From: a phage
Length of the DNA stretch: 3,120 nucleotides
Strand: one strand, 5' to 3'
Sequence record: PZ195127.1
Shown here: positions 1 to 3,120 of the stretch, in pieces
Numbering within the stretch: position 1 is the first letter of the stretch
How the letters are laid out: every line of letters starts with the position of its first letter
Notes under the pieces: model-generated
The model's input: only the letters and a program-made list of their open reading frames with translations
The model's database searches: none
Told to the model about the DNA's origin: nothing
Program-made: the position numbers and the translations under genes

Positions 1-6
1 ACCATG

Positions 7-26
7 CCGTCAGGTTTAGGTGACGG
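7..26 (+). other. Predicted 5'-UTR RNA hairpin (6-bp stem CCGUCA/UGACGG, 8-nt loop)
   Basis: Positions 7..12 (CCGTCA) are perfectly complementary to 21..26 (TGACGG), with loop GGTTTAGG at 13..20. Levivirus 5' leaders are highly structured and this structure gates maturation-gene translation. I judged the fold by eye, with no energy calculation. Confidence 0.35.
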
Positions 27-41
27 TATATTCCATATACC

Positions 42-46
42 GGAGG
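42..46 (+). promoter_or_regulatory. Shine-Dalgarno sequence (GGAGG) for the maturation gene
   Basis: GGAGG at 42..46, 4 nt upstream of ATG 51. The spacing is on the short side. MS2 has GGAGG upstream of its A-gene start as well. Confidence 0.6.
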
Positions 47-50
47 ATTT

Positions 51-1223
51 ATGTTTCCGAAGTCAAATATCGATAGAAATTACAAGGTTAAACTTATCTC
101 GTACGACAAGAAAGGGAATCTTGTTTCCGACGACTCATATGAGCAAGTCGAAAACTATCTCTTTCAAAATCGTTCGAGTACGTATAAACCTGGTTATATC
201 CGTCGCGACTTTCGAAGACCGACTAACTTCTGGAACGGCTATCGCTGTTTCAATCAGCCAGTTGGTACCTTCATTCGGAAACTCTCTGATGGTGGGAGAC
301 AAGTTGCTGATTATGGTATCGTGAACCCTAATAAGTTCACTGCCAACAGCCAGCACTTGGGGGACAACATGGTAATTTACCCTGGTCCCTTTTCTATAAA
401 TATTGATCAGCGTGCTTCTGTCGAAGTCCTCAATAAGCTTTCACAATCAAACCTCAATATTGGGGTTGCGATTGCTGAAGCTAAGATGACTGCTTCATTA
501 CTCGCTAAACAATCTATAGCTCTCATCAGAGCCTACACTGCCGCAAGGCGCGGTAATTGGCGAGAGGTGTTTTCGCAACTCCTCATCTCCGAACACCGTT
601 TCAGAGCTCCTGCTAAGGATCTCGGAGGTCGATGGCTCGAACTGCAGTACGGTTGGTTACCCCTTATGAGCGATTTGAAAGCTGCATATGATTTGCTTAC
701 GCAAACCAAACTGCCTGCTTTCATGCCCTTGAGGGTTACCCGTACCGTTGGCGGAACGCACAATTACAAAGTGCGCAACGTCGAGTCTGCAGGGGATACT
801 TGGTCCTATAGCGATCGTTTGTCGGTGAATTACCGAATATGGTACTTCATTTCCGATCCACGCCTCGCATGGGCTAGTTCCCTCGGGCTTCTTAACCCTT
901 TGGAAATCTATTGGGAAAAGACGCCCTGGTCGTTCGTCGTTGACTGGTTCTTACCTGTCGGTAATCTTATAGAAGCCATGAGTAATCCTCTTGGCCTCGA
1001 CATTATTTCCGGCACGAAGACCTGGCAACTTGAATCAAAACTTAATGCGACGCTTCCGGCTTCGGGCTGGTCTGGAACTGCAAAGTTGTCTGCATACGCG
1101 AAAGCATATGACAGATCTACTTTCTATTCCTTTCCCACCCCTTTGCCGTATGTGAAGTCTCCACTTAGTGGACTTCACTTAGCGAATGCATTAGCCTTAA
1201 TCAACCAACGCCTGAAAAGGTAA
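51..1223 (+). CDS. mat: Maturation (A / assembly) protein, 390 aa; pilus-binding virion protein of an ssRNA phage
   Basis: ORF 51..1223 starts at ATG 51, the first start after an in-frame TGA at 21..23, with GGAGG at 42..46 upstream. The translation contains blocks I recognise from MS2 A protein, e.g. [18 protein letters not shown](Y/F)[33 protein letters not shown] and C-terminal YVKSP.S...ALALI.QRL. Size and first position in the genome fit levivirus A protein. Confidence 0.93.
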
Positions 1224-1227
1224 TTAC

Positions 1228-1231
1228 GGAG
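1228..1231 (+). promoter_or_regulatory. Shine-Dalgarno sequence (GGAG) for the coat gene in the 16-nt maturation-coat intergenic spacer
   Basis: The maturation stop TAA is at 1221..1223. The spacer 1224..1239 (TTACGGAGTTAGCCAT) contains GGAG 8 nt upstream of coat ATG 1240. Confidence 0.6.
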
Positions 1232-1239
1232 TTAGCCAT

Positions 1240-1632
1240 ATGGCAACTTTACGCAGTTTTGTACTCGTCGATAATGGCGGTACGGGGAATGTTACTGTCG
1301 TTCCTGTTAGCAATGCCAACGGCGTCGCTGAGTGGCTTTCTAATAACTCTCGCAGTCAGGCTTATCGCGTGACTGCCAGTTATCGTGCGTCAGGCGCGGA
1401 CAAGCGCAAATACACCATCAAACTTGAAGTGCCGAAGATCGTCACCCAGGTTGTGAATGGTGTTGAGCTGCCTGTTTCCGCATGGAAGGCTTACGCCTCT
1501 ATTGACCTGACCATCCCTATCTTTGCTGCAACCGACGATGTGACCGTTATTTCCAAGTCACTCGCTGGTCTGTTCAAAGTTGGGAACCCTATCGCTGAAG
1601 CTATCTCTTCTCAGAGCGGCTTCTACGCCTAA
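1240..1632 (+). CDS. cp: Coat (capsid) protein, 130 aa, GA/MS2-type levivirus coat
   Basis: ORF 1240..1632 translates to MATLRSFVLVDNGGTGNVTVVPVSNANGVAEWLSNNSRSQAYRVT...LTIPIFAATDD...GNPIAEAISSQSGFYA. This aligns along its length with MS2 coat (..FVLVDNGGTGDVTV...ANGVAEW.SSNSRSQAYKVT...LTIPIFATNSD...GNPIPSAIAANSGIY) and matches my recollection of phage GA coat almost exactly. GGAG at 1228..1231 lies 8 nt upstream of the ATG. Stop is TAA at 1630..1632. Confidence 0.97.
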   Translation: MATLRSFVLVDNGGTGNVTVVPVSNANGVAEWLSNNSRSQAYRVTASYRASGADKRKYTIKLEVPKIVTQVVNGVELPVSAWKAYASIDLTIPIFAATDDVTVISKSLAGLFKVGNPIAEAISSQSGFYA

Positions 1633-1823
1633 TGGGTCTGAAAGCAAAACATAAGGAAAACCTATGTTCCGATTCACAGAGATCGAAAAGACTCTATGTA
1701 TGGATCGCACTCGCGATTGTGCTGTCCGATTTCACGTCTATCTTCAGTCATTGGATTTGGGGTCTTCTGATCCTCATTCTCCAGACTTTGATGGACTTGC
1801 CTACCTTCGTGATGAATGTTTAA
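1632..1823 (+). CDS. lys: Lysis protein L (single-gene lysis protein), 63 aa, overlapping coat stop and replicase 5' end in a different frame
   Basis: The ATG at 1632..1634 overlaps the coat TAA (1630..1632) as TAATG. The product MGLKAKHKENLCSDSQRSKRLYVWIALAIVLSDFTSIFSHWIWGLLILILQTLMDLPTFVMNV has a basic N-terminus and a hydrophobic membrane-spanning C-terminal half. It resembles MS2 L in the segment LY V(W/L)I.LAI(V/F)LS(D/K)FT, including the conserved Leu-Ser dipeptide. Position (coat/replicase junction, alternate frame) is canonical for levivirus L. Confidence 0.85.
   Translation: MGLKAKHKENLCSDSQRSKRLYVWIALAIVLSDFTSIFSHWIWGLLILILQTLMDLPTFVMNV
1649..1667 (+). promoter_or_regulatory. Translational operator hairpin (coat-protein binding site / replicase translation repressor and packaging signal) containing the replicase AUG
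   Basis: ACAUAAGGAAAACCUAUGU folds as a 5-bp lower stem (A1649-U1667, C1650-G1666, A1651-U1665, U1652-A1664, A1653-U1663), a bulged A1654, a 2-bp upper stem (G1655-C1662, G1656-C1661) and a 4-nt loop AAAA (1657..1660). This has the same architecture as the MS2 operator ACAUGAGGAUUACCCAUGU (bulged A, 4-nt loop, replicase AUG in the 3' arm). The Shine-Dalgarno-like AAGGA at 1653..1657 and the replicase ATG at 1664..1666 are sequestered in the stem. Confidence 0.8.
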
Positions 1824-3120
1824 CTAAACATCCCTCACTCGGAGACAGTAATTCGGACGCACGCCGTAAGGAATTGGCATATGCCAAACTTATGGATAGT
1901 GATCAAAGATGCAAAATCCAAAACAGTAACGGATACGACTACTCTCATATCGAGAGTGGCGTACTGAGCGGTATACTCAAGACTGCTCAGGCCCTTGTGG
2001 CGAACTTGCTTACGGGTTTTGAATCTCACTTCCTGAACGATTGTTCATTCTCCAATGGAGCCTCACAAGGGTTCAAGTTGCGGGATGCAGCGCCGTTTAA
2101 GAAGATCGCTGGGCAAGCAACCGTTACAGCTCCTGCTTATGACATCGCCGTGGTCGCCGTTAAAACGTGCGCACCGTGGTATGCTTATATGCAGGAAACG
2201 TATGGCGACGAGACCAAATGGTTTCGTCGGGTATACGGCAACGGTTTGTTTTCTGTTCCGAAGAACAATAAAATAGATCGGGCTGCCTGTAAGGAGCCTG
2301 ATATGAATATGTACCTTCAGAAAGGGGCGGGATCTTTTATAAGAAAACGCCTTCGCTCTGTCGGTATAGATCTTAACGATCAAACGCGCAATCAGGAATT
2401 AGCCCGACTCGGCAGCATTGATGGTTCGCTCGCTACTATTGATCTTAGTAGCGCTAGCGATTCCATCTCTGACCGCCTCGTCTGGGATTTACTTCCACCG
2501 CACGTTTATTCATACCTCGCTCGTATTCGTTCGTCGTTCACTATGATCGACGGGCGGTTACACAAGTGGGGTCTATTTTCTACCATGGGTAACGGCTTTA
2601 CGTTCGAACTCGAGTCCATGATCTTTTGGGCTCTGAGCAAGAGTGTAATGCTGTCCATGGGTGTTACTGGCTCATTAGGCATCTACGGTGACGATATAAT
2701 CGTTCCTGTTGAGTGTGCCCCAACTCTCCTTAGGGTACTATCCGCTGTAAACTTTCTTCCAAATCGGAAGAAGACGTTTATAACGGGTTACTTTCGTGAA
2801 AGTTGCGGTGCTCACTTCTTTAAAGGTGCCGACATGAAACCTTTTTACTGCAAGCGGCCAATGGAAACCCTTCCCGATGTCATGTTGCTTTGCAACAGGA
2901 TAAGGGGTTGGCAGACCGTTGGTGGAATATCAGATCCGCGGCTCTTTCCGATTTGGAAGGAGTTTGCTGATATGATTCCGCCGAAGTTTAAGGGTGGATG
3001 TAACCTGGATCGCGACACTTACCTCGTTTCACCGGATAAACCTGGTGTCACATTGGTTCGTATCGCTAAGGTACGCTCTGGTTTTAACCATGCGTTCCCA
3101 TACGGCCATGAAAATGGCCG
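1664..3120 (+). CDS. rep: Replicase beta-subunit (RNA-dependent RNA polymerase), 3'-partial: about 485 codons present, no stop within window
   Basis: Hand translation from ATG 1664 is open to the window end (last complete codon ends 3118). The product MFRFTEIEKTLCMDRTRDCAV...SSDPHSPDF...YLRDECLTKHPSLG...VPKNNKIDRAACKEPDMNMYLQKGAGSFIRKRL.SVGIDLNDQ...DGSLATIDLSSASDSISDRLVW..LPP..YSYL.RIRS...FSTMGNGFTFELESMIFWA...GIYGDDII...RKTF..G.FRESCGAHF..G.D.KPFY aligns block-for-block with MS2 replicase. The catalytic GDD is at 2687..2695 (YGDD 2684..2695). Not in the ORF track, presumably because it has no in-window stop. Confidence 0.95.
   Translation, partial: MFRFTEIEKTLCMDRTRDCAVRFHVYLQSLDLGSSDPHSPDFDGLAYLRDECLTKHPSLGDSNSDARRKELAYAKLMDSDQRCKIQNSNGYDYSHIESGVLSGILKTAQALVANLLTGFESHFLNDCSFSNGASQGFKLRDAAPFKKIAGQATVTAPAYDIAVVAVKTCAPWYAYMQETYGDETKWFRRVYGNGLFSVPKNNKIDRAACKEPDMNMYLQKGAGSFIRKRLRSVGIDLNDQTRNQELARLGSIDGSLATIDLSSASDSISDRLVWDLLPPHVYSYLARIRSSFTMIDGRLHKWGLFSTMGNGFTFELESMIFWALSKSVMLSMGVTGSLGIYGDDIIVPVECAPTLLRVLSAVNFLPNRKKTFITGYFRESCGAHFFKGADMKPFYCKRPMETLPDVMLLCNRIRGWQTVGGISDPRLFPIWKEFADMIPPKFKGGCNLDRDTYLVSPDKPGVTLVRIAKVRSGFNHAFPYGHENG

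Follow-up and report, generated by a model that had tools for sequence, protein, structure and literature searches.

The question raised by this stretch of DNA (record PZ195127.1; 3,120 nt, referred to below as the window) was whether it represents a cellular locus or the copied genome of an RNA phage and, in the latter case, which phage it came from and how much of the genome is present. A preliminary description, made from the letters alone, had taken it for a GA/MS2-like ssRNA phage genome and not a cellular locus. This reading was borne out by the database comparisons: all 3120 bases were aligned by megablast to complete genomes of genogroup II F-specific RNA coliphages of the Fiersviridae (100% coverage, 96% identity, E=0), and no match was obtained in the E. 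coli genomes, plasmids, and species genomes searched. The window is almost certainly a copy, in DNA letters, of a positive-strand RNA genome corresponding to nt 87-3205 of phage GA, and its source is a genogroup II F-specific coliphage of Emesvirus japonicum, GA/DL10/DL20 subgroup. Judged by nucleotide and protein comparison, it covers approximately 90% of the genome, and the strain is an ordinary member of the GA/BZ13 group II of F-pilus-specific RNA coliphages. The system is a known, textbook one and not new, as had also been proposed; the strain belongs to E. japonicum and is 94.9-96.0% identical to DL20, GA, and DL10.

Placement of the strain within Emesvirus japonicum

Comparison with related phages by BLASTN and a check of the individual proteins had been suggested in the preliminary description. 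Full-length matches were obtained with GA, with the BZ13 strains DL10, DL20, and T72, and with KU1, and the maturation, coat, lysis, and replicase proteins all scored above the curated Pfam cut-offs (Phage_mat-A, Levi_coat, Phage_MS2_lysis, and RNA_replicase_B, respectively). The same proteins matched solved structures from GA, MS2, and Q-beta. Nucleotide identity was 96.0% to DL20, 95.0% to GA, and 94.9% to DL10, with 0-1 gap columns (indels of at most 1 nt), and approximately 85% to KU1 and T72 over the full length. A 3378-nt Logan contig with the same three called genes was 95.9% identical to the window. Replicase amino acid identity was 97-98.6% to GA, DL10, and DL20 and approximately 90% to KU1 and T72. 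The species-level threshold for RdRp identity is approximately 80% under the ICTV criteria for Leviviricetes; high identity to E. japonicum was found both across the genome and in the RdRp. The core gene set and order of the Fiersviridae (ssRNA phages, formerly Leviviridae, with a genome size criterion of about 3.4-4.3 kb) were likewise present, with maturation, coat, and RdRp genes on one strand and PF03863, PF01819, and PF03431 all above their cut-offs.

DL20 (FJ483839, Escherichia phage BZ13) has identical gene coordinates after a 78-nt offset, and its alignment with the window contains 126 substitutions and no indels over 3120 nt. Protein identities to DL20 were 98.5% (maturation), 98.5% (coat), 98.4% (lysis, a single amino acid difference), and 98.6% (replicase). 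Codon differences from DL20 numbered 44 synonymous and 6 non-synonymous in the maturation gene, 46 and 7 in the replicase gene, and 107 and 15 in the maturation, coat, and replicase genes together; differences from the relatives were overwhelmingly synonymous. Since synonymous differences far outnumber non-synonymous ones in these three genes, the genes are intact and under purifying selection. GA (X03869 / NC_001426), the genogroup II prototype, differs by 156 substitutions over 3119 aligned positions and by one 1-nt indel in the 5' leader; it has the same four genes at matching places, the same operator sequence, and a lysis-control hairpin at the same position.

The KU1/T72 subgroup belongs to the same species and has the same gene order and operator hairpin, and its maturation protein and replicase are approximately 90% identical to those of the window. 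It differs in carrying an 18-nt insert after the coat stop codon and a UUG-initiated, 64-aa lysis gene set apart from that stop codon, whereas the window has the GA-type UAAUG overlap of lysis start and coat stop, with neither the 18-nt spacer nor the UUG start. In the alignment of this region, GA, DL10, DL20, and the SRR30876066 contig accordingly fell together with the window. MS2 (Emesvirus zinderi, genogroup I) shares the genus and the architecture, but its nucleotide alignment to the window covered only a 400-nt replicase core (approximately 75%).

No record among those searched was identical to the window, which is therefore regarded as an uncatalogued strain-level variant of a known species. 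Exact look-ups of the maturation protein in a collection of 153 billion gene positions and of a 52-mer in IMG/VR were empty, so the exact strain is absent from both collections. By nucleotide identity, the strain nevertheless falls inside the normal 94-96% spread of its own subgroup.

Genes, junctions, and RNA signals

All genes and RNA signals described in this section lie on the plus strand. The order maturation-coat-lysis-replicase with tiny spacers, as originally read from the sequence, was confirmed, the spacers being 16 nt (maturation-coat) and 31 nt (coat-replicase). The extent of the missing ends required adjustment. The window starts 86 nt into the GA genome, a 5' loss larger than the "few tens" first estimated. 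The estimated 3' loss of roughly 150 nt of replicase plus the UTR was right in kind, but the figures become 142 nt of replicase coding sequence including the stop codon and a 119-nt UTR (261 nt in total). The characteristic Fiersviridae termini (5' GGG and 3' CCA) both lie outside the window.

Positions 1-50 form the 3' part of the 5' untranslated leader, and in GA homologous sequence runs 86 nt further upstream. The leader fold (-17.9 kcal/mol, z=-2.0) contains one hairpin in which 4-12 pair with 21-29 and another at about 25-41, followed by the maturation-gene Shine-Dalgarno sequence GGAGG (42-46). In a seven-strain alignment, the U11C substitution of the window converts a U.G to a C-G pair in the leader hairpin, and GA shows a compensatory A30-U36 to G-C change in the second hairpin. 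An extra U in the leader hairpin loop is common to the window and DL20.

The maturation (A) protein gene (51-1223) is complete and encodes 390 aa (PF03863, 213 bits, E=7.6e-63). Its product matched the MS2 maturation protein (5TC1_M, E=2.5e-76), and residues Y30, S43, and I75 were not seen in any compared relative. The coat gene (1240-1632; 130 aa, complete; PF01819, 132 bits) is preceded by a Shine-Dalgarno sequence GGAG (1228-1231, read from the sequence) located 8 nt before the AUG. The coat protein had been described as clearly homologous to that of MS2, and the match to MS2 coat (E=5e-49) agrees with this; the match to the GA capsid (1GAV) was stronger (E=1.2e-79). Its amino acid sequence is identical to that of DL10 coat, the two genes differing by 18 synonymous changes.

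A hairpin at 1597-1623 (-10.2 kcal/mol, z=-2.05) occupies the end of the coat gene, immediately upstream of the lysis start. Its counterpart in GA (nt 1683-1707) carries the X03869 annotation 'pot. stem loop structure; pot. function in lysis gene control'. The coat stop codon overlaps the lysis start codon in the sequence UAAUG (1630-1634, read from the sequence), a putative termination-reinitiation site that is identical in GA, DL10, DL20, and the SRR30876066 contig; for the GA junction, strict coupling has been demonstrated experimentally (PMC9955659). The lysis gene (1632-1823; PF11125, 29.3 bits against a cut-off of 25) encodes 63 aa with a basic N-terminus (net +4) and a hydrophobic C-terminal half. 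In MS2, the lysis gene starts inside the coat gene and not at its stop codon. The preliminary description had reported an overlapping lysis gene; the gene is present, but the coat overlap amounts to only 1 nt, and the main overlap (160 nt) is with the replicase gene, which is read in a different frame. A search of 1200-1700 for inverted repeats that could form an MS2 Min Jou-type long-range coat/replicase pairing yielded weak pairs only.

The replicase beta-subunit (RdRp) gene (1664-3120; PF03431, 716.6 bits) is cut by the window end after the first 485 of 532 codons plus 2 nt. The reported GDD motif was located at nt 2687-2695 within IYGDDIIV (aa 339-346), as is characteristic of the catalytic RdRp of the family. 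The protein matched Q-beta replicase (3MMP_G, E=1.2e-64), and residues V164, R357, I373, and I422 were not seen in any compared relative.

The replicase AUG (1664-1666) is held in a translational operator hairpin (1648-1668; -4.9 kcal/mol, z=-2.97) in which A1654 is bulged and 1657-1660 form an AAAA loop. The hairpin sequence was invariant in all seven strains compared, and in GA the site is annotated as 'pot. binding site coat protein' (X03869). The geometry is that of the MS2 operator (7 bp, bulged A, 4-nt loop), whereas the MS2 loop is AUUA and one stem pair is G-C in MS2 and A-U in the window, a compensatory change relative to the MS2 consensus. In an Rfam scan (E<=1), the sole match was the MS2 operator RF02359 (18.1 bits, E=0.45, model positions 16-36), and no other curated RNA family was found in the window. 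The score lies below the gathering score of 40, as expected since the 21-nt match covers only positions 16-36 of a 36-position model. By analogy, the hairpin would work like the MS2 operator although it does not score as a member of the model built on MS2.

Alternative origins of the window

Two tests of origin had been named at the outset, namely a lack of Fiersviridae matches and the presence of flanking cellular genes, and neither situation was encountered. That the window is an endogenous viral element, integrated as DNA into a cellular genome or a plasmid, is so improbable as to be negligible: no match to the window was obtained by megablast against 5,426 E. coli genomes (20,395 records) or against 72,556 plasmids, and a 30-mer invariant in seven compared strains was absent from 185,579 GTDB species genomes. 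All genes are intact with a signature of purifying selection, and every related contig found was of phage-genome size (1.2-4.5 kb) and free of cellular flanks. The window might also derive from reference phage GA itself, through a laboratory cDNA clone or a spike-in added as process control, and not from an environmental strain, since water virology commonly uses GA as a genogroup II reference strain (PMC6963950) and the window begins and ends inside the genome, like an amplicon or clone insert. This origin is nevertheless very unlikely, given that the window differs from GA at 156 of the aligned positions cited above, resembles the Logan contig and DL20, an environmental isolate, more closely than GA, contains no vector sequence, and has no counterpart in the plasmid collection.

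An inter-species recombinant or chimeric source, with the window starting at the breakpoint, was considered because of the DL20 record, whose first 78 nt are of MS2 type and lie outside the window. These nucleotides (1-78) match the MS2-like strain DL52 at 100% identity and MS2 at 97%, while GA, KU1, DL10, and the SRR30876066 contig have a different, mutually homologous leader; base 1 of the window falls exactly at the switch of DL20 to GA-like sequence, and recombination has been reported in the genus Emesvirus (PMC3499819). However, no breakpoint was detected within the window when 300-nt sliding identity to eight relatives was calculated: identity to DL20 was 93-99.7%, and the order of relatives was the same throughout (DL20 ~ SRR contig > GA ~ DL10 >> KU1/T72). 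The junction ACCAUG is common to the MS2-type leader of DL20 and to the GA-type leaders and is situated close to the first base of several records (that of T72 lies 3 nt further on), so the window start may have been set by primers or assembly ends. The leader in the DL20 record may itself be a laboratory artefact. A chimeric source of this kind is thus improbable, and slightly more doubtful still is its specific form, a natural inter-species recombinant lineage in which an MS2-type (genogroup I) leader is joined to a genogroup II body at ACCAUG. Such a lineage, if real, would explain why the window starts exactly at the junction. The preferred reading remains an ordinary E. japonicum strain of the GA/DL10/DL20 subgroup.

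Predicted infection cycle and reading of other signals

For an E. japonicum strain of this subgroup, the infection cycle can be carried over from GA, MS2, and Q-beta, with agreement for the present strain at the level of sequence. The genome would double as mRNA, with ribosomes entering mainly at the coat gene. Ribosomes ending at the coat UAA are predicted to restart on the overlapping AUG, giving a little of the 63-aa, membrane-active lysis protein. Late in infection, a coat-protein dimer would bind the hairpin containing the replicase start codon, which would shut off replicase synthesis and nucleate packaging; the operator-binding step draws on general knowledge together with the annotation of GenBank record X03869, a literature search for GA coat-operator binding having returned no directly relevant open-access paper. 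The replicase beta subunit, a YGDD polymerase, would act with host translation factors, and the maturation protein, at one copy per virion, would bind both the RNA and the F pilus.

Other signals in the window should consequently be read as features of a positive-strand RNA phage (RNA hairpins, translational coupling, and overlapping frames), and minus-strand ORFs, promoters, and terminators are irrelevant. A 106-codon plus-strand ORF overlapping the maturation gene (4-324) was considered as an extra gene and rejected. Among the relatives compared, only DL20 and the SRR30876066 contig share the open frame with the window, owing to a 1-nt insertion in the leader, and the AUG of the ORF sits within a hairpin stem. 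In its frame, all codon differences were non-synonymous (15/15 against DL20 and 13/13 against the SRR contig), whereas the maturation frame gave synonymous to non-synonymous ratios of 12:3 and 9:5 in the same comparisons. On the untranslated minus strand, comparably long stretches (101 and 111 codons) are free of stops. Alternative-frame plus-strand ORFs at 991-1155, 2055-2276, and 2418-2546 were also discarded, each having stops or loss of the start codon in at least one close relative.

No open mechanistic question is affected by the sequence. It represents a further strain of a species that serves as an indicator of human faecal pollution and, at approximately 4% divergence from the nearest records and with a handful of private substitutions, may be of minor use for primer and probe design and for strain typing.

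Assignment to a known coliphage species

The window was compared with 50,697 phage records using megablast, and it aligned in its entirety to genogroup II F-specific RNA coliphages. Identity was 96.0% to BZ13 strain DL20 (record nt 79-3198 aligned), 95.0% to the prototype GA (record nt 87-3205 aligned), 94.9% to BZ13 strain DL10, and about 85% to KU1 and T72, whereas MS2-type phages could be aligned only across a 400-nt replicase core, at about 75%. All matched records are classified in Fiersviridae, Emesvirus, and those of genogroup II are Emesvirus japonicum. Multiple alignment of the window with the GA subgroup required 0-1 gap columns, and the divergence of the window from the known strains of this subgroup was about equal to that among the strains themselves (94.2-94.6% identity). 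A 3378-nt Logan contig, SRR30876066_388, which carries the same genes, was 95.9% identical to the window. Exact look-up in the collections searched returned no identical copy of the maturation protein and no copy of a 52-mer from the window, so the strain itself is absent from those collections. The window is a strain-level variant of an already known species, which was sequenced in 1986 and serves as a routine faecal-source indicator (PMC3499819, PMC6963950); the finding is correct and ordinary.

The preliminary description had dismissed a cellular locus, and the searches bore this out. Megablast returned no match to the window among 5,426 complete E. coli genomes, plasmids included, or in a set of 72,556 plasmids, and a 30-mer probe, which spans the operator and is invariant among the seven strains compared, was absent from 185,579 species-representative genomes. 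The same 30-mer was present in two metagenome contigs, each 1.9-2.0 kb long and with 87% identity to the window, and the maturation-protein homologues (E<=1e-20) among the matches listed were all located on contigs of at most 4.5 kb (534 of 534). Codon differences between the window and DL20 were mostly synonymous (synonymous to non-synonymous 44:6 in the maturation gene, 17:2 in the coat gene, and 46:7 in the replicase gene), and the 18 nucleotides at which the coat gene differs from that of DL10 leave the protein unaltered. Such comparisons mark the window as a functional genome, subject to purifying selection, rather than a decayed copy. No recombination breakpoint within the window was visible by sliding-window identity.

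The window falls short of the 3466-nt GA genome by 86 nt on the 5' side and 261 nt on the 3' side, the latter comprising 142 nt of the replicase CDS, including the stop codon, and a 119-nt UTR. The preliminary description was accurate on the 3' deficit (roughly 150 nt of replicase and the UTR) and too low on the 5' one (a few tens of nt).

Gene content and RNA elements

Four plus-strand genes were found in the order already proposed (maturation, coat, overlapping lysis, replicase), with Pfam families in agreement. The maturation gene (51-1223) encodes 390 aa (Phage_mat-A, 213 bits), the coat gene (1240-1632) 130 aa (Levi_coat, 132 bits), and the lysis ORF (1632-1823) 63 aa with a basic N-terminus and a hydrophobic C-terminal half (Phage_MS2_lysis, 29.3 bits against a cut-off of 25), and the replicase ORF extends from 1664 past the window end (485 codons; RNA_replicase_B, 717 bits), with its GDD motif at nt 2687-2695 in the context IYGDDIIV. 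The maturation-coat and coat-replicase spacers measure 16 nt and 31 nt, respectively. Among solved structures, the coat protein matched the GA capsid 1GAV (E=1e-79) and MS2 coat (E=5e-49), the maturation protein matched that of MS2 (E=2.5e-76), and the replicase matched that of Q-beta (E=1e-64).

At the coat/lysis junction, UAAUG (1630-1634, plus strand), the lysis AUG has one base in common with the coat stop codon. This junction is common to the window, GA, DL10, DL20, and the SRR30876066 contig, whereas in KU1 and T72 its place is taken by an 18-nt insert and a UUG start codon; the window therefore belongs to the GA subgroup. A plus-strand hairpin at 1597-1623 (-10.2 kcal/mol) coincides in position with the annotated potential lysis-control stem-loop of GA. 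Experiments on GA demonstrated that its lysis gene lacks a Shine-Dalgarno sequence and that the only ribosomes to translate it are those that have ended coat translation at UAAUG (PMC9955659).

The operator hairpin (1648-1668, plus strand), which holds the replicase AUG (1664-1666), a bulged A at 1654, and an AAAA loop, occupies the annotated potential coat-protein binding site of GA and was unchanged in all seven aligned strains. Its predicted fold has an energy of -4.9 kcal/mol (z=-3.0), and the sole Rfam match in the window was to the MS2 operator model (18.1 bits, under the gathering score of 40), from whose consensus it differs by a compensatory G-C to A-U change.

The whole mechanism that we infer for this strain is transferred by homology from GA, MS2, and Q-beta. 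The phage RNA would serve as messenger, ribosomes would enter mainly at the coat gene, and termination-reinitiation at UAAUG would yield the lysis protein. Binding of coat dimers to the operator hairpin would repress replicase translation and begin encapsidation, the RNA would be copied by the YGDD replicase subunit with host factors, and the virion would attach to the F pilus via the maturation protein.

Leader, upstream reading frame, and lineage variation

Nucleotides 1-78 of the DL20 record (FJ483839) constitute an MS2-type leader, which is 100% identical to that of MS2-like DL52 (JQ966307) and 97% identical to that of MS2, unlike the mutually homologous genogroup II leaders of GA, KU1, DL10, and the SRR30876066 contig. 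Position 1 of the window is the exact point where DL20 turns GA-like. Either natural recombination or a chimera formed in the laboratory or during assembly accounts for the DL20 record. A chimeric leader in the source genome of the window, although improbable, is the only mildly novel reading remaining.

Two plus-strand hairpins with overlapping arms (4-12/21-29 and about 25-41) lie directly upstream of the maturation-gene Shine-Dalgarno sequence. U11C, which is private to the window, converts a U.G pair to C-G, and the second hairpin of GA carries a compensatory A-U to G-C change. These patterns hint at conserved, possibly alternative structures controlling maturation-gene translation; in MS2, such control is exerted by leader structures.

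A 106-codon AUG ORF (4-324, plus strand) runs in another frame across the beginning of the maturation gene. The window, DL20, and the SRR30876066 contig are the only sequences in which it is open, because they carry an additional U near position 31 (a 1-nt leader insertion), and in GA, DL10, KU1, and T72 the upstream AUG lies in a different frame with 4-8 stops. Considered as a gene, this ORF very likely does not encode a conserved expressed protein, since all strain differences are non-synonymous in its frame.

Four contigs from IMG/VR and metagenomes (L007, L013, L031, and L032; 1.4-2.0 kb), which are 87-88% identical to the window, were nearer to the KU1/T72 subgroup across most of their length. 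Identity of L013 to the window was 97-98% over 1650-1950 and fell to 77-84% beyond 2100, a shift that could reflect a mosaic or a divergent lineage. Residues private to the window strain were Y30, S43, and I75 of the maturation protein (15 cluster members checked) and V164, R357, I373, and I422 of the replicase (five strains checked).
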